A DNA stretch of 30,320 nt from a virus (taxonomy: Duplodnaviria; Heunggongvirae; Uroviricota; Caudoviricetes), in IMG/VR virus record IMGVR_UViG_2663762810_000003. One strand, 5' to 3'. Positions 1,008 through 20,796 of the stretch are shown here, one piece after another. The translations under genes and the position numbers were made by a program. The notes beneath the pieces are model-generated. The model made no database searches. It worked only from the letters and a program-made list of their open reading frames with translations, and was not told the DNA's origin. Numbering within the stretch: position 1 is the first letter of the stretch; the number at the start of each line of letters is the position of its first letter.

Positions 1008-1355
1008 TTACTTATCACATAAATCAAATGCAGCCTTAGTGACATCCCCCAGACTCTTTTTTAACCCTGGGGCGGCATCATTATCTAGCCAAAATGGATT
1101 ATTGTTATCTAACGGTAACGCACCAAATGTTTTACCTTTTATTCGAGCCAAACCTGTAAGTGCATATAACTTATTATCGTCAAAATTCATCACATAAGGA
1201 TTACCATCAAGACACTGTAATTGAACCTCATCAGTATTAAATGGCCATACCCCATTGAAACTCTCACGTTCAATAGTTTTAAAAGGCATTGCGACGGCGG
1301 AAAAAGAAAACATAGATAAAAAAGTAACTAATAGTTGAACCTTTTTTACTTTCAT
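1008..1355 (-). CDS. small secreted/periplasmic protein (signal peptide, two Cys), cargo gene between int and repressor
   Basis: 115 aa; N-terminal hydrophobic signal-like segment LLVTFLSMFSFSAVA; GAGGT Shine-Dalgarno 7 nt upstream; stop is 5 nt from the int start; locally AT-rich. Confidence 0.55.
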   Translation of the reverse strand: MKVKKVQLLVTFLSMFSFSAVAMPFKTIERESFNGVWPFNTDEVQLQCLDGNPYVMNFDDNKLYALTGLARIKGKTFGALPLDNNNPFWLDNDAAPGLKKSLGDVTKAAFDLCDK

Positions 1356-1384
1356 ATCATTACCTCAATTTAGCTCAAGTAAGA

Positions 1385-2035
1385 TTACAAATTAAAAAAC
1401 GCCCTAGAAATGACACCGCCTACCAAAACCCCTACGCAGATAAAGAATATTATTTCTTTTGGATAAAGTCGGATTAATTCTGAAGCACGAAGTCGGACCT
1501 CTGGTAAGGTCGAACTCTCTGTGTGGCTTGATGCCGATTGTTGCTCTAACCACGACAATGCAGACTGTAACTGAGAACGAGTAAGATCGTTTAAACGTCC
1601 TGTACCGAAATTGATATGGCAATACCGCAGAAGTTTTTGTCGAAGTCCACAGTCTTCACTGTTACGTAGTAATAAACTTACAAGAGCCTTACAGGCATCA
1701 TGATCTTTACATCGCTCAAGCATTGCATGCAGAAAACTCTCCGCTGTTTTATATTGATTTACTGTCATATCATCAATACCAGCTACACCAATCTCCGCAT
1801 GTACTTTTTGCCAAATAATAAACGCTTCAGTATTGCTAGCTTCTGCAATAGCAGCAACCAAGCTATTTAGCTCCTTACGCTGAGCCTTAAGCAAAGGGCG
1901 ATCGTCATCATCATTATTCGAAGGGATTGCGATATTGACAGTATGAGAACCATCATATCGCTCTATCTGAATATTCTTTTCGTGAAAATCACGCCCAGCA
2001 ACGCGATTGTTTGAACCGTTTGAGTTGACGGCCAT
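1385..2035 (-). CDS. hypothetical protein with C-terminal transmembrane anchor; N-terminus shares a motif with the repressor C-terminus
   Basis: 216 aa; strong SD (GGAGGTGA) before the ATG; C-terminal hydrophobic segment IIFFICVGVLVGGVISRAFF; N-terminal NGSNNRVAGRDFHE resembles SGGNNRIAGRDYNE at the end of the upstream repressor. Confidence 0.55.
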   Translation of the reverse strand: MAVNSNGSNNRVAGRDFHEKNIQIERYDGSHTVNIAIPSNNDDDDRPLLKAQRKELNSLVAAIAEASNTEAFIIWQKVHAEIGVAGIDDMTVNQYKTAESFLHAMLERCKDHDACKALVSLLLRNSEDCGLRQKLLRYCHINFGTGRLNDLTRSQLQSALSWLEQQSASSHTESSTLPEVRLRASELIRLYPKEIIFFICVGVLVGGVISRAFFNL

Positions 2036-6274: not shown

Positions 6275-9037
6275 ATGACGGCAGAGTACATCAGGGACTG
6301 GCAACAACCGCGCCACGCAGTGGGGCGTGAAGGAACGGGGATCCCCGCTCCTGAATCCGCGCTTTCCTCCTGGCTGGATGCCTACCGGGTAGAGAACGAG
6401 CGCCGCCAGGAAATGGCTGATGCGGCGTTCTCCGCCACGCCGCTGGGCAACCTGATTAATAAAAGCCTGGACGCACAGGAAAAACAGGACAAAACCATCA
6501 CACTGGCAGGAGACGCCAGAAAACAGGCACGCGGCGCGGTGGATGAAGCCATGGCCTCGCTGCGCCTGCTGCCGTCCTATCTGCGCGATCCGCTTATTCG
6601 CCACCTCTCCTTCCTGCGCAAAAAACAGGAAGCCGATCGCCGGAAAGGCAAAAAGAGCTGGCAGGCGGAACGCTATGCACGCGGAACCCTGCGCAAAATA
6701 TTCGAACGTCTGGATAGCACTGACGGACGCTGGCTGACACCGGGTTATCGCTCCCTTGCCGGACGCGAACGCCTGGACGATTTGCTTTACCTGCCGCAGC
6801 TCAACAAACACCAGATACAGACGCTGGCCACCATGACGGCGGCGATGTTCAGCAGCACCTTCGAAAAACTCTGCGATGGCTTTGGCGCGACCGATGGCGA
6901 GCTGACCATGGATGTAACCCTGAAGGCGTATCAGATGCTGGCCCGCATGGCGTTACACCTGCACGCCATGCCTCCACATTATGACGCACTGACAACAGAC
7001 AAAGACCGGAGGAACGAACCGGACACGGAGCTGCTGCCGGGCGCAATCCTTCGCCTGACCTGTGCGGAATGGTGGAAACGCAAACTGTGGCTGTTACGTT
7101 GCGAGTGGAGAGAAGAACAACTCCGCGCCGCCTGTCTGGTTTCCAGAAAAACATCACCCTATCTGAGCCAGGACGCGTTAAGCGAGTTTCGCGCACAGCG
7201 CGAGAAAACACGCGATTTCCTGAAAAGTTTCATGCTGGAAAATGAAGACGGGTTCACGATTGATCTCGAGACAGTGTATTACGCGGGAGTAAGTAACCCG
7301 GTTCACCGTAAGGCAGAAATGATGGCCACCATGAAGGGGTTGGAACTTCTGGCCGAAGCCCGTGGCGACAAAGCGGTGTTTCTGACTGTCACCTGCCCGT
7401 CAAAATACCACGCCACAACGGAGAACGGTCATCCGAATCCCAAATGGAACGGGGCCACAATGCGCGACTCCAGCGATTACCTGGTTAACACGTTTTTTGC
7501 GGCGGTCCGCAAAAAACTGAACCGCGACGGCCTGCGCTGGTATGGCATCCGCACGGTGGAGCCTCATCATGACGGCACCGTGCACTGGCATATGATGGTC
7601 TTTGCACATCCGGAAGAAATCGACACCATTGTGTCCCATACCCGCGATATTGCCATTCAGGAAGACCGCCACGAGCTGGGCAATGATATTACTCCGCGCT
7701 TTAAGGTGGAGTATGTCGACGGCTCAAAAGGCACGCCAACCAGCTACATCGCCACCTACATCGGAAAGAACCTGGACAGCCGCGCCGTGGATGGCATCGA
7801 CCCGAAAACGGGCAAGCCACGCGTGGACCACGAAACCGGAAAATCAATGGCCGAGAGCGTGGAGCGCGCCATCGGCTGGGCGCGCCTTCACCGGGTCCGT
7901 CAGTTCCAGTTCTTTGGCATCCCCTCCCGTCAGGTGTGGCGTGAACTGCGCCGCCTTGCCAGCCAGATGGCACGCAATCCGGAAGGCCCGCAACGGCTGA
8001 AAGATGATGCAATGGATGCGGTACTCGCTGCCGCCGATGCCGGGTGTTTTGCCACCTACATTAAAAAACAGGGTGGCGTGCTTGTTCCACGCAAGGACTA
8101 CCTGATTCGCACCGCCTACGACCTCGCAGATGAGCTGAACGATTACGGCGAACAGAGCGTACAGATTTACGGAATCTGGTCACCACTCATCGGGGAATCC
8201 TCCCGTGTGTGCACGCATCCGGATAACTGGAAGCTGGTAAGACGTAAACCGGAAGCGGAAGACAGCGCCCGCGAAAATGGTTTTGACCTTCAGGGCGGCC
8301 CTGCCGCCCCTTGGACTCGTGGCAATAACTGTCCCCGTGTACAGGAAACAGACAACAACGGGACAGAACAGCCGGAAGAACGGCCAGCACTGTGGCCGCA
8401 GCTTCCTGACGGCGTTGATGTGGATGAATGGATGCGCTCACTGAAACGGCACGAACGCCGGGCGCTGATGCGTTCGCTGCGTGACAAACAGGCAAAAAAC
8501 AGCAGTGATGAAATGCAGAGCTGGACACAGAGCCGCAAACAGCAGCGGCCTTTGCCTGATAACCACGAATTACTCGCTAAAGAATGGCGGGAATCTGCCG
8601 AATCTCTCGGCCTGCATATCGGTGAACAGCAGATGCAGCACCTGTTACGGGGCGGCAGCCTGTACGTTGACGGCAGCATCATTGCACCACAGGGATTTGA
8701 AATTGTACGCAAACCGGATACCCGCCCGGACAGCCGAATCACGCAGCTCTGGCAGCGCCTGAGCCGTAATCACGGCGTAAGCAGCACGGAGATCCGCCAT
8801 AACCCGGTCGCCAGCTATCTGGAACAGCTGGGGGCATCAGACCCCAAAGCCGCCGCACGCCTGGCATCCACACTTCAGCAGGACCAGAACACCATGAAAA
8901 CCCCCGTTACTGTGCTTTCTGACATGCTGCGCGCCATTCACGACACAGAGCACACACAAAGAATCTGTGAAACAACCGAACGCGCCTGCCACAAAGCTGA
9001 CCTACTGCGAAGAGGAGTAAAGAGTGGGAACAAATAA
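6275..9037 (+). CDS. A: replication initiation protein gpA (HUH rolling-circle endonuclease) with a long C-terminal extension
   Basis: 920 aa; HUH motif GTVHWHMMVFAH and paired tyrosines YIATYIGK as in P2 A. Confidence 0.9.
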   Translation: MTAEYIRDWQQPRHAVGREGTGIPAPESALSSWLDAYRVENERRQEMADAAFSATPLGNLINKSLDAQEKQDKTITLAGDARKQARGAVDEAMASLRLLPSYLRDPLIRHLSFLRKKQEADRRKGKKSWQAERYARGTLRKIFERLDSTDGRWLTPGYRSLAGRERLDDLLYLPQLNKHQIQTLATMTAAMFSSTFEKLCDGFGATDGELTMDVTLKAYQMLARMALHLHAMPPHYDALTTDKDRRNEPDTELLPGAILRLTCAEWWKRKLWLLRCEWREEQLRAACLVSRKTSPYLSQDALSEFRAQREKTRDFLKSFMLENEDGFTIDLETVYYAGVSNPVHRKAEMMATMKGLELLAEARGDKAVFLTVTCPSKYHATTENGHPNPKWNGATMRDSSDYLVNTFFAAVRKKLNRDGLRWYGIRTVEPHHDGTVHWHMMVFAHPEEIDTIVSHTRDIAIQEDRHELGNDITPRFKVEYVDGSKGTPTSYIATYIGKNLDSRAVDGIDPKTGKPRVDHETGKSMAESVERAIGWARLHRVRQFQFFGIPSRQVWRELRRLASQMARNPEGPQRLKDDAMDAVLAAADAGCFATYIKKQGGVLVPRKDYLIRTAYDLADELNDYGEQSVQIYGIWSPLIGESSRVCTHPDNWKLVRRKPEAEDSARENGFDLQGGPAAPWTRGNNCPRVQETDNNGTEQPEERPALWPQLPDGVDVDEWMRSLKRHERRALMRSLRDKQAKNSSDEMQSWTQSRKQQRPLPDNHELLAKEWRESAESLGLHIGEQQMQHLLRGGSLYVDGSIIAPQGFEIVRKPDTRPDSRITQLWQRLSRNHGVSSTEIRHNPVASYLEQLGASDPKAAARLASTLQQDQNTMKTPVTVLSDMLRAIHDTEHTQRICETTERACHKADLLRRGVKSGNK

Positions 9038-9257
9038 TCAAAAGAAACGGAGTTTGAAAATCAAATGATAAATAAAAGAAGGATATTCACACAGAACATG
9101 TGTATCTATGAAATGCCAATAAAATTAAATTGGTATGGACCACAAACTATGTAACATAGTGGGCTTAAACAACTTCAAATAATAAAAATAAGTAAAGCCC
9201 TAAGTCCAATCATTTAAGGCTTCAATTATCTTAGTGATTAAATATGACTCACAGTTC

Positions 9258-10622
9258 TTATTTTATAGTCATATTAGCTATTGATGTGGAAATATTAAAG
9301 ATATGGTTATATTCAAACGCAAAATCACCTTCTATACGCTGAACATAACTTCCCTTTTCATTACGTAATAGTTTTAATGTTTCTTTATCGATGTAATAAT
9401 AATCCAATAGTTCTTTAAGCAATTTAATTTCCGTCTTTGATGAAAAATAATCAGATTTTATATTAAGTAATTCTAATATCTCTTCAGAAGACATTTCCTT
9501 CTTAAGTAGTCGATTTAACATATCTGGAGAAGTTACTTTCAAGAAACAAACCAATGCTAATGCAATCATATAATAATTATCATCATTATTCGCTATACAC
9601 GTATGATTATCCACTACAAGCATAGTTGAAATACATCGTTCAACTTCTCGCAGCGAGCAATTATTGGTTTCAATCAAGCATGATAAGACTCTTACAAAAG
9701 CACCATCTGTATTAATACCTAGAGAGTGATTCTGTTGTAGAGTTTTTTTAATATACGTTGTAATCGTTGTTTTGTTAGATGCTTGTAACACCATAGAGTC
9801 ATACACATTTATTTTGGGCAAAGAAAACCAATAATGAATAAATTTATTCAAGTACAGACCAGTATTGATATCACCATATTTATATGCAATTCCCTTTTCA
9901 AATTGCTCTCGATTCATTACCAATAAGAAAACCATACCTTTCACAGAAAAAAGATGCTTAATTTTTTCCAATAGCTCTAGAGAATAATCTGGGCGGGCTC
10001 GATCAAGTTCATCAATAATAATCAAGGTTTTTCTCTTTGTATTTGTATATATTTCTTCTAAAGCTTTTTTAAAGTCAGCAATTGAGTTTTTTTCCTGCTC
10101 CATGGATTTTATTTTCTCTTCAACAAAAGACTCTAACTCACTATTAATGGAATCGCTAACTGTTTTTCCTGCCTCATCAAGAGCAGAACCATTCACAACA
10201 CCTGCTGTCAGGGTTGTAATAGCTACCTTTGCACCTCCGATTAATATTTTTGCACCTATTTTCTTACCAGTTTTAATAATGCGATCAGCTACATCTTCGG
10301 CCTCTACTCCTCTGTGTTTTAGTAAATTATATAGTTCAGATGATATTGAAATAAATGGATCTGATTGATAATCATTTTCAAATGCATCGAAATAAACAAC
10401 ATCTATATATTCACTATTAGTTAATTCTAATTCTGATTTTAACATCTTAACAAATGATGTTTTACCGCTACCCCATATATCATCTAACGCAAAAACCAAA
10501 TTTGAGTCAGGAGCATTAATAATAAGCCGTATCATTTGATCATATAATGTCTTACGATTAAATATGTCAGATGTAATATCAAAACCATTCTCAAAACCAT
10601 TCTGATTAGTAGTTATATTCAT
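9258..10622 (-). CDS. KAP-family P-loop NTPase, solitary cargo in the accessory locus between A and portal Q
   Basis: 454 aa; modified Walker A ALDDIWGSGKTSF; hydrophobic insert AKILIGGAKVAITTLTAGVV; Walker B LIIIDELDRARPDY; gene and flanks are markedly AT-rich. Confidence 0.8.
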   Translation of the reverse strand: MNITTNQNGFENGFDITSDIFNRKTLYDQMIRLIINAPDSNLVFALDDIWGSGKTSFVKMLKSELELTNSEYIDVVYFDAFENDYQSDPFISISSELYNLLKHRGVEAEDVADRIIKTGKKIGAKILIGGAKVAITTLTAGVVNGSALDEAGKTVSDSINSELESFVEEKIKSMEQEKNSIADFKKALEEIYTNTKRKTLIIIDELDRARPDYSLELLEKIKHLFSVKGMVFLLVMNREQFEKGIAYKYGDINTGLYLNKFIHYWFSLPKINVYDSMVLQASNKTTITTYIKKTLQQNHSLGINTDGAFVRVLSCLIETNNCSLREVERCISTMLVVDNHTCIANNDDNYYMIALALVCFLKVTSPDMLNRLLKKEMSSEEILELLNIKSDYFSSKTEIKLLKELLDYYYIDKETLKLLRNEKGSYVQRIEGDFAFEYNHIFNISTSIANMTIK

Positions 10623-11475
10623 AGTAACTCCATTTTTTCCTTATTGAAATTAAATTAGCATTATAAACAAACACTCTCATTAAAAAAGCAAACGAATAAT
10701 AATGATTTATGATATCTTGCTATTTATCTAAAAAATTTGCAATCACAAAAAATCATATAATTAATTAAAGGTTCTTCATGCTGAAAAATAGTTATCAAAT
10801 AGTATATAGTATTGTTTTTAATTGAATGCCATAATAATTACCTTAGTCCTTTAAAACTTCCAACGATGTGGCCCCAGTTATACAGTCACATATCAAGTCC
10901 TGAAACAGTATGCACATCAAATAGGGTTATGAATCTTTTTTCATATCTTGCGATCATTAAAATCTTCTCTGCTACGAGCAAATTTACCATCCGTTCTTTA
11001 CGTAGAAAACAGCACGATACACACTGCACAATAGTGCACAAATTTGCACAATTTTTTTGAACGACTTTTTGCCCTTCCGGCCCGCGTGGCGGCTGGATCC
11101 GTCAGGGATCCGTGCGTGCACAAAAAAACGCGCTTTTTCTGCGCGCAGGTGACGGGGGAACAGCCCGCGTTTCAGGGGGTAAATAGCGTTCCCTTAACGA
11201 TGTCGCAGCGACACGACAGAATGGCCGTATTTCTCACGCTGAGCGTGAAAAATACGTGAGGGATTCTGATTTGATGGGATGAAAGGTAAGGCCGTCAAAA
11301 TCGCACTGAGGCGGCGAGAACATGCAGTCAACGCGGTGGGATTGCGTAAGAGTCTGACCGTCGATGGTGGCGATAAACTGGAAGGCGTCGTGAAATTATC
11401 TGACTGATACAGGAGCTGGAGAGTCGGGGCATAAATTTTTTATGCCCCGGCGAAGCAGCAGACAAGCGAAGCGCG

Positions 11476-12522
11476 TCAGGATGTGGGCTGGATGTCTAAC
11501 AGTGCGTAAGGGTTAAAGCGGATCACCTCTTCGCCAAGCCAGTCATTGATGTGCTTCATGGCCTCCATGACGGGCATCAGCTCGTTAATTGCGTAAACCC
11601 GCGCGGCCTTCTCCACATCACCAAACGCACTTTTTTCACCCGGCATCGCCCCCATCAGTTGCGGCGGAACGCGGTGCGCAGCCAGCACATCATCACGGGA
11701 TGCCGCCTTAACATTCATGAACTCATCCTTTGCGGTGATCTGCTGGAACGGCAAAATTTGCACCCCCTCTTTGCCCCCGTTGGGCGCATGAATGAGCACG
11801 TTTTTAAACGCACCGCCACCACGTGCACCCTGTAGCGTTTCTTTCAGGGAGTCCATGCTTTCGCGGTTTACCTGCGCTGCACCGATGTAGATGATGCACC
11901 CGGCGTGGGATCCGTTGTCGTAATACAGTTTTCTGAACATGTCCGCCGAATGAGACAGGCTGGCCGAGAGTAATGCGCCGAGATATTCCGGCATGCCGTA
12001 GATTTCCTGGTTAATGTCAGGATTCATCAGGTGGCACACTTTGCCAGGGCGAAACTGAAACGCGTCCTTACCATCCTGCACATACCACCATGATTCAAGA
12101 TCGCTTCCGCGTCGCATGTATTTCGCCAGGGCGTGCCGTAATTTAAGCGGTTCGCCGAGCATATTGCTTCGAAGCTCAAGGAATGCGTTACCGAACACAA
12201 ACCAGTCCAGCGCCAGCGCCGAGAAATCCTGCCGGGAAAGCAGCGGGTGCGGAATATAGCAACCGAGCAATACATTGCGCTTAAAGTAAAGCGCAGACTG
12301 ATGCCAGGACGTTTGCCGGGCAGCTCTTGCCAGACCGTACCAGTCCACCGGGGTTTCATACCACCGCCCGTTATCAGCACAGTACATATTGTCCAGCAAA
12401 TCATGCCCGGTCAGGCGATAAGGACCATCAAATGTGAATGCACTGAGCGACGATTCTTTCCTGAGCGCATCAGCGAGATCAATGCGTGAACTCATGCGCA
12501 CTTTTTTATTTTTTCTGCTCAT
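11476..12522 (-). CDS. Q: portal protein gpQ
   Basis: 348 aa, recognised as P2 Q-like; immediately downstream of P on the same strand. Confidence 0.9.
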   Translation of the reverse strand: MSRKNKKVRMSSRIDLADALRKESSLSAFTFDGPYRLTGHDLLDNMYCADNGRWYETPVDWYGLARAARQTSWHQSALYFKRNVLLGCYIPHPLLSRQDFSALALDWFVFGNAFLELRSNMLGEPLKLRHALAKYMRRGSDLESWWYVQDGKDAFQFRPGKVCHLMNPDINQEIYGMPEYLGALLSASLSHSADMFRKLYYDNGSHAGCIIYIGAAQVNRESMDSLKETLQGARGGGAFKNVLIHAPNGGKEGVQILPFQQITAKDEFMNVKAASRDDVLAAHRVPPQLMGAMPGEKSAFGDVEKAARVYAINELMPVMEAMKHINDWLGEEVIRFNPYALLDIQPTS

Positions 12523-14201: not shown

Positions 14202-14399
14202 TATTTCTGCGGGCGGATAGAAGCGCAGTCAAAAGCCCTTTCAGCGCGTTTTAACACGGCACTGGAAGCCAGCCTGCAGGCGTGGCAGCAGAAACACCAC
14301 GCAGTCATTCTGGTGTCGCCTGCTGTGGTACAGGGGGCACCGGATATCACCCGGGAAATCCAGCAGGATATTGCCCGGCGAATGAGGGCGGAGCCATGA
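14202..14399 (+). pseudogene. trbI: 3' fragment of an F-type conjugation gene, consistent with trbI (reading frame opens at the junction)
   Basis: Open frame ending ...DITREIQQDIARRMRAEP, with its TGA overlapping the traW ATG (ATGA) as in the F tra operon; identity from memory. Confidence 0.5.
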
Positions 14400-15028
14400 G
14401 ATGCCGGGGGCTGATTGCCCTGCTGATATGGGGGCAGAGTGTGGCCGCCGCCGATCTTGGTACCTGGGGCGATCTGTGGCCGGTAAAGGAGCCGGACATG
14501 CTGACGGTGATCATGCAGCGCCTGACGGCACTGGAGCAGTCCGGTGAGATGGGCCGGAAAATGGATGCCTTTAAGGAGCGGGTGATCCGCAACAGTCTGC
14601 GGCCCCCTGCCGTGCCCGGTATCGGACGCACGGAGAAATACGGCAGCCGGTTGTTTGACCCGTCCGTCAGACTGGCTGCGGATATCCGGGATAACGAAGG
14701 GCGGGTGTTTGCCCGTCAGGGAGAAGTGATGAATCCGCTGCAGTATGTTCCTTTTAACCAGACGCTGTATTTCATCAATGGCGATGATCCGGCGCAGGTG
14801 GCCTGGATGAAACGCCAGACGCCGCCCACACTGGAGAGCAAAATTATCCTCGTGCAGGGCAGTATCCCGGAGATGCAGAAGTCTCTGGACAGCCGTGTTT
14901 ACTTTGACCAGAACGGTGTGCTCTGCCAGCGCCTCGGCATTGATCAGGTCCCGGCACGGGTGAGCGCCGTTCCCGGCGATCGCTTCCTGAAGGTGGAATT
15001 TATTCCGGCAGAGGAGGGCAGAAAATGA
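14396..15028 (+). CDS. traW: F-type conjugative transfer protein TraW (full length)
   Basis: 210 aa starting MRCRGLIALLIWGQSVAAADLGTWGDLWPVKEPDMLTVIMQRL, recognised as F TraW; the track ORF from 14282 is an upstream over-extension. Confidence 0.75.
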   Translation: MRCRGLIALLIWGQSVAAADLGTWGDLWPVKEPDMLTVIMQRLTALEQSGEMGRKMDAFKERVIRNSLRPPAVPGIGRTEKYGSRLFDPSVRLAADIRDNEGRVFARQGEVMNPLQYVPFNQTLYFINGDDPAQVAWMKRQTPPTLESKIILVQGSIPEMQKSLDSRVYFDQNGVLCQRLGIDQVPARVSAVPGDRFLKVEFIPAEEGRK

Positions 15029-15192
15029 AGCGAAGCCTGTGGCTGCTGATGTTATTCCTTCTCGCCGGTCATGTCCCTGCAGCGTCTGCGGATTCTGCCT
15101 GTGAGGGGCGTTTTGTAAACCCGATCACGGATATCTGCTGGAGCTGTATTTTCCCGCTCTCGCTGGGCAGTATCAAAGTCAGTCAGGGTAAC
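15025..15192 (+). pseudogene. traU: 5' fragment of F-type traU (about 56 codons), truncated at the junction back into phage DNA
   Basis: MKRSLWLLMLFLLAGHVPAASADSACEGRFVNPITDICWSCIFPLSLGSIKVSQG matches the recalled TraU N-terminus, then diverges and stops at 15243. Confidence 0.65.
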
Positions 15193-18036: not shown

Positions 18037-18570
18037 ATGATGCACTTAAAAAACATTACTGCTGGCAATCCTAAAACGAAAGAACAATACCAGCTAACAA
18101 AGCAATTTAACATCAAATGGCTTTATTCAGATGATGGAAAAAACTGGTATGAGGAACAAAAGAACTTTCAGCCTGATACGTTGAAAATGGTCTATGACCG
18201 TAACGGCGTTATTATTTGTATTGAAAAGGATGTTTCAGCAATTAATCCAGAAGGCGCAAGCGTCGTTGAGGTTCCTGATATTACAGCAAATCGCCGGGCT
18301 GATATTTCGGGTAAATGGATGTTCAAAGATGGCGTAGTGGTAAAGCGAACTTATACCGAGGAAGAGCAGAGGCAGCAGGCGGAAAATGAAAAGCAAAGCC
18401 TGCTACAGCTCGTCAGGGATAAAACCCAGCTATGGGACTCACAGCTACGGCTGGGCATCATTTCCGACGAGAATAAACAAAAATTAACCGAGTGGATGCT
18501 CTATGCGCAGAAAGTCGAATCTACAGACACTTCCAGCCTGCCAGTAACGTTTCCCGAACAACCAGAATGA
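18037..18570 (+). CDS. G: tail fibre assembly chaperone gpG
   Basis: 177 aa; immediately after H; homologous to the minus-strand 18598..19125 product. Confidence 0.85.
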
Positions 18571-18597
18571 GGCAAGGCCCGCTATCGGGCCTTAATT

Positions 18598-19125
18598 TTA
18601 CTCTGGTTTTTGTGGCCATTCTGGCTTTGCCGTATCCACACGGCTGACCAGAACACTGTAGCGTTCCCATGCTTCCAGTCGTGTGCGCTCCTCGTCTGTT
18701 GCCATATTCAGCCTGACAGCGCGTTCCAGCGGCTGGATGACTGATTCAGCTTCGGAAAGCAATGCGGCCTTTTGTAATTCGGCCTGTTGTTGCTGTTCGT
18801 CTGCCGTATAAATCCGTTTAACTACAGCTCCATCCTTAAACATCCACTTACCGGAATCATCAGCGCGGCGGTTGGCTGTAATATCGGGAACCTCAACGAC
18901 GCTAAAACCTTCAGGGTTAAGCGTGGAGGCATCTCTAGTGATGGCGACAATAATATTATTTGCATCGTAAACAATCTTTATTGTGTCTGGCTGAAAGTTT
19001 TTCACTTCCTCATACCAGTTTTTTTCGTCCTCGGAGTAAAGCCAGATGACTCCGTGCTTCTTTGTTAACTCATACTGTTCCAGTGTTTTAGCGTTACCCG
19101 CTTTTATGTTCTTTAAGTGCATCAT
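18598..19125 (-). CDS. alternative tail fibre assembly chaperone (G')
   Basis: 175 aa; same MMHLKNI...NWYEE...[13 protein letters not shown]...GKWMFKDG pattern as G with a divergent C-terminus. Confidence 0.85.
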
Positions 19126-19126
19126 A

Positions 19127-20104
19127 TTAAACGCTCGCTACATTATACCAAGTGCCATTTATATACTTTTGAACGGGTCTGTAATAAACGCCCGCTATAT
19201 TATCGGCAGAATTGGACCCTGTATCCTGAACATTAATACCAGACAATACATGACCTGACGGGCACTGGAAATTCCATGTTTGCCAGTTGTTCACTCCATA
19301 ATATTGCTGTGAACCAAGTCGAACATCTTTCACATAACGGGAATCAAAGTTACCGTAATCTGAGGGATTAACACGACCTGTAATATTTATGGTTTTATTA
19401 CTTTGAATACTGCCGGAGACAAAGCGCATAACATGGACGTTATTAGCATAAACATCCAGATACCCGTCGCCATTTTGTTTAAATCCCGTGTCATTATCAC
19501 CCAAAACAATCGAGTTACCACCAAGAGCACTGGATGTTCCGATGCCCAGTGCACCATTCAATTGACCGCCAGATAATGACAACGCCCCAACCTCAGCAGC
19601 AGTCGGTTTAATGTGCGAACTGTAAATTACATATACAGTTCCATCTGTCAGGCCTGTTGGTTTATTCGCTGTATAAGTTGGTGATGTATGAATCGTTACG
19701 CTGGCGTTACTGGTATAATCCCACTGAATATTAACACCTGTGGCGTAATTACCTATTTCAACATAAACATCATAGGTATCACCGGATGTATTCACCCATG
19801 CAAAATTAGTAAATCCAACCGAGGTCCGTCGCCATAATGCACCAGTAATACCTTTTGGATTTCCATTTCCGGCACGCAGAACCAGCTCAGAGATGCCTGC
19901 TTGATGCGGGGAGCCAACGTTAAACCCTGCGCCACCAATCAGGCTTATGTAAACCACGGAACTGGCTTGTGGCATTGTTACAGTTGCCAGTTTGAACCAT
20001 CCTGCACCACCATTAAAAGACATGGTTGTTGAATTTGTTGCTCCAATATTGCGCAGGAATAATCTTTTATCAGGAATATCTGCGCCATTCTGGTTTTTCT
20101 GCAA
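19127..20104 (-). CDS. alternative tail-fibre C-terminal variable segment (Sv'), without its own start; would be expressed after inversion
   Basis: Begins [10 protein letters not shown], the same residues as H around 17130; the frame continues upstream into the inverted repeat. Confidence 0.75.
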
Positions 20105-20128
20105 CGCACCAGAAGCCTGATTTACCGT

Positions 20129-20154
20129 TTCCTGTAAACCGAGGTTTTAGATAA
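20129..20154. other. right 26-bp invertase crossover site, TTCCTGTAAACC-GA-GGTTTTAGATAA
   Basis: Near-identical to the Mu gix-type site as recalled; inverted match to 17070-17095. Confidence 0.6.
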
Positions 20155-20208
20155 TGGCCGTTTCTGACCTGCATGGCATGATTTACGCTTTTGGACGGGA
20201 GATTCAGC

Positions 20209-20796
20209 GTGCTGATTGGCTATGTAAGGGTATCAACAAATGACCAGAATACAGACCTGCAACGAAACGCTCTTGTTTGTGCAGGATGTGAACAAATATT
20301 TGAAGATAAATTAAGCGGGACAAAGACAGACCGACCGGGATTAAAACGCGCTTTAAAGCGTCTTCAAAAAGGTGACACGCTGGTTGTCTGGAAACTGGAT
20401 CGCCTCGGGCGAAGCATGAAACATCTGATTTCTCTCGTCGGGGAACTACGGGAGCGAGGGATTAATTTTCGCAGTCTGACCGACAGCATAGATACATCTT
20501 CTCCAATGGGGCGTTTTTTCTTCCACGTGATGGGTGCCCTGGCTGAAATGGAACGTGAATTAATTGTTGAACGTACACTGGCCGGACTGGCAGCAGCGCG
20601 CGCACGGGGGCGCACAGGCGGACGTCGCCCGAAGCTGACAAAAGAACAGCATGAGCAAATAGCAAGGCTGATTAAAAACGGTCACGACAGAAAACAACTG
20701 GCAATAATTTACGGCATTGGTACATCGACGATTTATCGTTACCACCCCGCAGGAGAATCAAGCGGAACAATAGAGAAGAGTCAGAAAACAAAATAA
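20209..20796 (+). CDS. DNA invertase, serine recombinase of the Gin/Pin/Cin/Hin family
   Basis: Probable GTG start at 20209 (MLIGYVRVSTNDQ); in-frame ATG at 20191 is an alternative; catalytic-Ser N-terminus and C-terminal HTH (GTSTIYRY). Confidence 0.9.
   Translation: MLIGYVRVSTNDQNTDLQRNALVCAGCEQIFEDKLSGTKTDRPGLKRALKRLQKGDTLVVWKLDRLGRSMKHLISLVGELRERGINFRSLTDSIDTSSPMGRFFFHVMGALAEMERELIVERTLAGLAAARARGRTGGRRPKLTKEQHEQIARLIKNGHDRKQLAIIYGIGTSTIYRYHPAGESSGTIEKSQKTK

Follow-up and report, generated by a model that had tools for sequence, protein, structure and literature searches.

A stand-alone KAP-family NTPase gene of the PDC-S20 type in the gpA/portal hotspot of a P2-like Escherichia coli prophage: a candidate anti-phage gene

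What is the role of a solitary, AT-rich gene for a KAP-family P-loop nucleoside triphosphatase (NTPase) that lies between the gpA and portal genes of a P2-like prophage? The question is raised by a 30,320-nt stretch of DNA from a virus of the Caudoviricetes (IMG/VR record IMGVR_UViG_2663762810_000003; we call the whole stretch the window), whose host element is a defective P2-like (P88/Xuanwuvirus-type) prophage of E. coli. The gene occupies 9258..10622 on the minus strand. Our preferred answer, to which we give a probability of roughly 0.6, is that it encodes a stand-alone KAP/AAA+-like switch ATPase, carried as anti-phage cargo that would protect the lysogen from other phages. It is a good defence candidate but not a new kind of system, the family being already catalogued as PDC-S20.

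The gene is an open reading frame (ORF) for 454 amino acids, with an ATG start, a stop codon at 9258-9260 and a GGAG Shine-Dalgarno sequence at 10628-10631, 5 nt ahead of the ATG. A frame of 1365 nt that stays open in DNA of 30% GC, and that hundreds of relatives share over its full length, is not a chance ORF. A preliminary description, drawn from the letters of the window without database searches, had read it as a KAP-type NTPase with both a Walker A and a Walker B. Both the translation and Pfam confirm this: the KAP_NTPase profile (PF07693) matches residues 27-337 on profile positions 5-289 of 293, at 132.2 bits (cutoff 20; E=2.9e-38). The P-loop WGSGKTSF (residues 50-57; 10452..10475, minus strand), with the catalytic K54 and T55, and the Walker B segment LIIIDELDR (residues 200-208; 9999..10025, minus strand) fit the family patterns xWGxGK[ST] and hhhhDExDR. 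In an alignment of 49 relatives the W, both G, the K and the F of Walker A are invariant and the T nearly so (at least 90%), as are, without exception, D204, E205, D207 and R208 of Walker B, N237/Q240, R325 and R329. As read from the translation, the catalytic site is intact.

Four PDC-S20 models of PADLOC match the protein. PDLC04959 (E=8.2e-76) aligns residues 17-417 of 454 with profile positions 17-404 (388 of 464), and the second, PDLC04956, has E=1.4e-60. The protein also matches PHROG 8614 ('unknown function', E=1.8e-102), and RefSeq labels a 99.5%-identical gene 'KAP family P-loop NTPase fold protein'. By these profile matches the gene is a KAP-family P-loop NTPase of the PDC-S20 type. 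It shares with PDC-S20 the size class and the single-gene organisation, and is a direct member by hidden Markov model (HMM) at near full-length coverage; PDC-S20 is itself a bioinformatic candidate label with no mechanism attached, and structurally the protein is no different from it. The earlier suggestion that the gene may be uncharacterised, since it could not be placed in a named defence family, thus holds insofar as no validated system is matched, and fails insofar as the family has already been catalogued.

A word-indexed protein search found 283 relatives, nearly all of 425-470 aa; those with source names come from Enterobacterales, plus one Vibrio. An exhaustive search of 1.84 billion cluster representatives gave 851 clusters (50% identity) at E<=1e-30; relaxing the threshold to E<=1e-10 raised the number to 6687. 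Of the 150 top-scoring representatives most are ~450 aa long, with a tight grouping at 425-470. By these counts the gene belongs to a large, compact and length-conserved family.

The position of the gene recurs across genera. Its hotspot borders in the window are the gpA replication endonuclease gene (6275..9037, plus strand; Phage_GPA Pfam match on identical loci and annotation of homologous loci) on the left and the portal protein gene (gpQ; 11476..12522, minus strand; ORF and homologous-locus annotation) on the right. In all six lineages examined (E. coli, Enterobacter, Klebsiella twice, Salmonella and Pantoea; 43-100% identity) the homologue lies between portal and gpA of a P2-like prophage, on the portal side and in the same orientation as the portal gene. 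The homologues share 69% identity in Enterobacter hormaechei, 63% and 47% in Klebsiella, 45% in Salmonella and 45% in Pantoea. That the gene stands alone between gpA and portal, as first described, is therefore confirmed for the window, and comparison of the A-to-Q interval extends the position to the other lineages. The interval has the character of a P2-like defence hotspot, with variable cargo between conserved gpA and portal/cos, and we take it to be the site that holds old and tin in P2, likewise AT-rich cargo with single-gene exclusion functions.

What accompanies the homologues differs by lineage: an RmrA-like HTH-M78 protein with a DUF3368 protein, AIPR/AbiU, an Exo_endo_phos pair, or nothing (these co-residents, together with the Vibrio ApeA gene named below, lie at L005 9637-11290, L010 8550-10238, L031 9566-10982 and L022 8849-10657, where L numbers denote the loci compared). 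In one Klebsiella locus (L014), as in the window, the KAP gene is the sole cargo. PADLOC recognises three of the neighbours, as RmrA (5e-33, Enterobacter), AbiU (7e-33, Klebsiella) and ApeA (3e-74, Vibrio). The defence reading is supported by the PDC-S20 match, by recurrence at the hotspot in five other lineages and by these RmrA-like, AbiU and ApeA neighbours. As separate observations, the Enterobacter RmrA-like HTH-M78 protein is a peptidase that is found together with the DUF3368 protein, and the Pantoea Exo_endo_phos protein and its 167-aa companion have no PADLOC match; that pair may be another hotspot system.

The same site also raises the possibility, which we consider unlikely, that the gene is cargo with a purpose other than defence against phages: interference with P4-like satellites or plasmids, maintenance or partition, or a selfish addiction-type module. 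ParM/StbA together with a stability protein is the most frequent E. coli cargo at exactly this site, the gene adjoins cos and the packaging genes, and Aravind and colleagues reportedly proposed that KAP NTPases regulate the assembly of membrane-associated complexes generally. Profile searches, however, found no ParA/ParM or toxin-antitoxin similarity, and the best matches are all linked to defence (PDC-S20, and PifA, QatA and RdrA, which are compared below), as are neighbouring genes in three lineages. Members outside the P2 hotspot also argue against a P2-specific housekeeping role. These distant members (at most 39% identity) lie on other mobile elements or islands: beside a terminase-fragment gene in Serratia, in what is likely a prophage remnant; in a Vibrio islet adjoining ApeA; in a Pectobacterium element with a relaxase gene; and, in Cedecea, at the margin of a different prophage.

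The preliminary description also held that the gene is AT-rich and separately acquired, and composition and distribution both bear this out. In 500-bp windows GC content is 0.28-0.32 over 9001-11000, against 0.53-0.60 on either side; the coding sequence has 0.303, gpA 0.574 and portal 0.536. In each host examined the homologous gene is AT-rich as well, at 0.30-0.37 GC. To map the junctions, positions 8700-11700 were compared by blastn with four other P88-like prophages of E. coli, whose cargo differs. The common backbone stops at 9050, 13 nt past the gpA stop codon. It restarts at 11018-11025, except where a prophage carries the remnant gene described below, as that of E. coli M8 (L028) does; there the restart is at 10900. 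We therefore delimit an acquired cassette of about 9051..10899 (no strand assigned; GC 0.294), within which homology to the other prophages is lost. The island limits first given, 9038-11040, do not survive this comparison, the right edge being off by ~120-140 bp. At that edge lies a recombination scar: 10886..10990 (minus strand) encodes 34 aa (MVNLLVAEKIL...), the surviving 5' end of another hotspot cargo gene, and window positions 10900-11040 are 89% identical to 967 E. coli genomes. The parent gene of this remnant carries a frameshift in E. coli M8 (L028 2516-3091), and its product is hydrophobic.

The cassette is rare in E. coli. It occurs in one of 5426 complete genomes (APEC E12053, 99.5% nucleotide identity), even at the 'distant' sensitivity setting of blastn, whereas the hotspot flanks are present in 1443 genomes with other cargo. 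Four assemblies or read sets of E. coli contain the identical KAP protein, each time in the same prophage. Relative to the otherwise intact APEC E12053 prophage (L001), that of the window lacks ~7.85 kb (L001 17421-25268), comprising the terminase 5' end and the scaffold, capsid, small terminase, head completion, lysis, tail completion and baseplate V/W/J genes. In their place stand ~970 bp (window 14219-15191) that are 100% identical to the trbI-traW-traU DNA of F-type plasmids, and the same junction of deletion and F-plasmid DNA appears in two independent assemblies (L002 and L003). The APEC E12053 prophage has a lesion of its own, an IS3-family element that splits the cox gene (L001 5404-6617), and this copy is probably also impaired for excision.

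Such decay might mean that the gene is a silent or decaying passenger that does nothing at present, its ORF intact-looking but its AT-rich DNA silenced, by H-NS for instance. The loss of morphogenesis genes, the F-plasmid insertion and the rarity of the gene in E. coli all suit this explanation, as does the upstream region. The 5' part of the cassette (10623..10899, minus strand; 25% GC) presumably carries the gene's own promoter, as suggested by the Shine-Dalgarno sequence and by a perfect -10 hexamer TATAAT at 10660-10665, which was found by eye and has no good -35 partner; a sigma-70 consensus scan upstream of the gene found no 9/12 promoter. We nevertheless consider a passenger very unlikely, given a full-length ORF with every catalytic residue in place, a protein that is identical in four independent assemblies or read sets, 99.5% nucleotide identity to the APEC E12053 copy, whose prophage is otherwise intact, and a family that is kept at full length over 851 clusters.

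How does a single gene of this kind work, and is it truly single? It had been described as solitary, lacking a co-oriented partner ORF, and a scan of both flanks for ORFs of at least 20 aa with a plausible start supports this, finding only the 34-aa remnant. Nor is there a conserved partner gene across ten contexts in nine genera, where the neighbours are unrelated to one another and mostly on the opposite strand; the lack of any conserved partner marks the gene as a self-contained cassette. Stand-alone organisation and hotspot residency are thus common to homologues in several genera.

An AlphaFold2 model built with 49 homologues (predicted local distance difference test score, pLDDT, 81; predicted template-modelling score, pTM, 0.77) arranges the protein as a conserved N-terminal motif (GF..x..DxFxR), a P-loop alpha/beta core, a two-helix hairpin, a helical lid and a C-terminal helical bundle. 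The hairpin, an insertion of ~90 residues (~106-195; 10038..10307, minus strand), lies between helix alpha2 and the strand of Walker B; its helices span 105-139 and 151-194 in model numbering, which is one below the true numbering, and pLDDT at the tip falls below 50. The AAA+-type lid (residues ~285-365; 9528..9770, minus strand) contains the invariant R325 and R329 in an SLREvER motif, both sensor-2 candidates. Beyond it lies a bundle of ~90 residues (366-454; 9261..9527, minus strand), the most variable part of the protein. When the C-terminal part was modelled separately, the AAA+ lid was the only region with a fold match, and the last ~90 residues had no structural match. Mean pairwise identity is highest in the Walker B/sensor block (residues 195-270), at 0.75, and falls to 0.57 in the Walker A half, 0.39 in the hairpin, 0.37 in the lid and 0.25 in the C-terminus. 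The contrast between a C-terminus at 0.25 and a core at 0.75 fits a sensor role, and we infer that the C-terminal bundle is a specificity or sensor module.

The tip of the hairpin (~122-146), rich in Gly and Ala, is the 'hydrophobic insert' of the preliminary description, which implied a transmembrane helix at 115-145. The segment is indeed weakly hydrophobic, but a membrane-spanning helix is unsupported. The Kyte-Doolittle peak in a 19-residue window is 1.49, at ILIGGAKVAITTLTAGVVN (residues 126-144), with a nearly invariant Lys inside it. Across 258 relatives the spacer between Walker A and Walker B is ~145 residues long and contains no transmembrane-grade segment, its hydropathy maximum having a median of 1.15 and reaching 2.0 in none of the 258. 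With AlphaFold2 also placing a long helix here at low confidence, we rejected a transmembrane insert; on these predictions the PDC-S20-type subfamily is free of transmembrane helices, like PifA. Such helices accompany the NTPase domain in many KAP proteins, but the example of PifA shows that the family does not require them.

The closest structure to the model is RdrA of the RADAR system (PDB 8fnt, 8fnu and 8hr8), whose fold it resembles; a search of PDB sequences with the family profile gave only insignificant matches to calcium-channel beta subunits. RdrA is larger (~800-900 aa against 454) and only 12-14% identical, and its insertion is a four-helix bundle where the KAP protein has a two-helix hairpin, but the hairpin and the RdrA 'crown' insertion occupy the same topological site (PMC9994260). 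RdrA touches its effector RdrB almost entirely through the crown, and the helical C-terminus has been proposed as a sensing domain (PMC9994260). The protein is not a member of RADAR by the evidence of the window: no RdrA model is among the PADLOC matches at E<=1, and there is no RdrB adenosine deaminase.

The likeness to RdrA nevertheless suggests that the KAP gene could be half of a two-component system, as in RdrA/RdrB or QatA/QatBCD, in which the ATPase senses and an effector is encoded elsewhere (in the host chromosome or the prophage backbone) or was lost on recombination. RdrA works only with RdrB, by way of an insertion placed at the same site; among named proteins, the nearest relatives in sequence are QatA and PifA; the 454 aa hold no recognisable effector domain; and the recombination scar with its gene remnant adjoins the gene. 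We nonetheless regard a missing partner as improbable. None is conserved over the ten contexts described above, the KAP gene is the only cargo in the window and in Klebsiella L014, the PADLOC class is a single-gene one, and the tight length range of the best 150 representatives suggests a self-contained unit.

QatA, of the validated QatABCD defence system, is a KAP-type ATPase with weak PADLOC HMM likeness (E=1e-13); it is ~630 aa long against ~450, the NCBIfam score is 50.9 bits against a cutoff of 600, and the flanks of the KAP gene hold gpA and portal rather than QatB, the QueC-like QatC or the TatD-like QatD. PifA of the F plasmid, which excludes T7, is also a single protein on a mobile element with a KAP domain that lacks transmembrane helices; its PADLOC model matches KAP residues 39-275 (E=1.5e-16), but only on profile positions 38-260 of 720, so that the C-terminal two thirds of PifA are absent here. 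According to the summary in PMC13001434, PifA aborts T7 infection by membrane depolarisation. When the KAP protein was searched against 72,556 plasmids (tblastn, E<=1e-3), there was a single full-length match, at 40.6% identity, and the pifA gene of the F plasmid was not among the matches listed. EF_KAP and other KAP-effector fusions of Enterococcus and gut metagenomes are also single proteins that depend on Walker B, and such fusions protect E. faecalis (2025 preprint, PMC12632615); these proteins, however, have N-terminal transmembrane helices and a C-terminal 'effector' of ~320 aa, whereas the protein of the window has no such helices and only ~90 aa past the lid. Tmn/YobI carries two transmembrane helices inserted in the P-loop domain, and the protein here has neither a PADLOC Tmn match nor a transmembrane-grade segment. 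The P2 genes old and tin are unrelated in sequence; PADLOC gave seven matches at E<=1, and no Old or Tin model is among them. Old combines an ABC-type ATPase with a TOPRIM nuclease in one protein, and the target of Tin is the single-stranded DNA-binding protein of T-even phages. On HMM scores and the absence of partner genes, we rejected membership in Qat, RADAR, PifA, Tmn and Old/Tin alike.

KAP_NTPase genes have been seen at such loci before. Those tabulated as P2 cargo by Rousset et al. 2022 (Table S5A, PMC9122126) are always accompanied by other genes, and none is among the systems that the study tested; the accession WP_021546060 does not appear in the accessible portion of their Table S5.

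If the gene does defend, RdrA and STAND proteins offer an analogy for its mechanism. A phage product would be recognised by the variable C-terminal bundle, and this would license an RdrA/Cdc6-like ring to assemble or remodel in an ATP-dependent way, by means of the intact Walker A, Walker B, sensor and Arg residues. The conserved hairpin between Walker A and Walker B would then form a 'crown' that delivers the output. We found no nuclease, deaminase, TIR, SIR2 or transmembrane effector fused to the protein or linked to its gene, so that the output would be either intrinsic or exerted through a host protein. Intrinsically, the protein might hydrolyse ATP in a runaway fashion, trap or take apart a phage complex, or perturb the membrane in a PifA-like manner with the weakly hydrophobic hairpin tip. 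In its most radical form, which we hold only as a doubtful idea, the protein would be an effector-less 'minimal' immune ATPase: the 454-aa KAP ring alone would stop infection once its C-terminus had sensed a phage protein, whether by ATP-driven trapping or disassembly of phage complexes, by runaway hydrolysis, or by insertion of the Gly/Ala-rich hairpin crown into the membrane.

Several points weigh against the stand-alone defence ATPase. First, PDC families are candidates defined by association, and the name 'PDC-S20' has no mention in the literature searched; that literature, on KAP NTPases and defence, comprises Tmn, Qat and the 2025 Enterococcus preprint, with no experiment on the compact subfamily found. 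Among other candidate systems of the PDC-S, PDC-M and HEC types that were tested elsewhere, four of eight were active. Second, the hotspot also holds non-defence cargo (the ParM/StbA partition genes), which makes location alone weak evidence. Third, because the resident prophage is defective, selection for the KAP gene in this strain is unproven. Fourth, the INPHARED phages contain no close homologue and no relative of full length, the best match having 31.6% identity. Fifth, no effector domain is detectable, so any output mechanism is speculative; the hairpin tip, which might otherwise serve, is not of transmembrane grade and is modelled with low confidence. Finally, it is fold similarity that suggests oligomerisation, and the TM-score to RdrA is a modest 0.48.

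Terminator-like structures lie on both sides of the gene. A hairpin with an 11-bp stem (9193..9224, minus strand) lies 34 nt past the KAP stop codon and is followed by a U-rich tract at 9178-9192; RNA folding gives it -19.6 kcal/mol (z=-2.2), and a consensus terminator scan did not pick it up. A second terminator-like site, 3' of the portal gene (11128..11146, minus strand), parts the terminase-portal (P-Q) operon from the cassette. Rfam, searched at E<=1, returned just two chance miR-430 matches, both within the coding sequence, and no small RNA in the flanks. The linear genome record of phage P884B11 begins at about window position 11070, which places cos at ~11070 and the cassette at the end of the packaged genome, adjoining cos. 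Beside this predicted cos, in conserved backbone, three TGTGCA hexamers stand at exact 10-bp phasing (tgtgcaaatt tgtgcactat tgtgcagtgt; 11021-11050, minus strand); they may be a protein-binding array, for example a packaging or regulatory site.

Two other regions of the prophage deserve a record. A second AT-rich cargo patch (1008-2035, minus strand; GC 0.35-0.42) lies between the integrase gene (1-1002) and the gene for a helix-turn-helix repressor (2051-2455), and encodes a DUF2511/YebY-like protein of 115 aa and a 216-aa protein of no confident family, neither matched by PADLOC. Farther on is an invertible tail-fibre region (18037-20796), with opposed tail-fibre assembly genes at 18037-18570 (plus strand) and 18598-19125 (minus strand) and an alternative fibre C-terminus (19127-20104, minus strand) that adjoins a Cin/Gin-type resolvase-invertase gene (20191-20796, plus strand). 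Opposed fibre genes with an invertase are a layout typical for host-range switching.

What would follow if the gene defends? The locus is otherwise one more case of the P2 defence hotspot, which has already been described, and the interesting remainder is mechanistic: how a KAP ATPase with no effector could defend. PDC-S20 would turn from a bioinformatic label into a validated single-gene system, and the protein, being small and tractable, would serve as a model for the long-standing question of how phage is blocked by a KAP NTPase that has no recognisable effector, PifA for instance. Should the minimal-ATPase idea prove true, self-sufficient NTPase defences would make up a large family, with more than 850 clusters, and the working of PifA might become clearer as well. 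The family is found in P2-like prophages of Klebsiella, Enterobacter, Salmonella and E. coli, Enterobacterales of clinical importance, where it could affect the host range of therapeutic phages.

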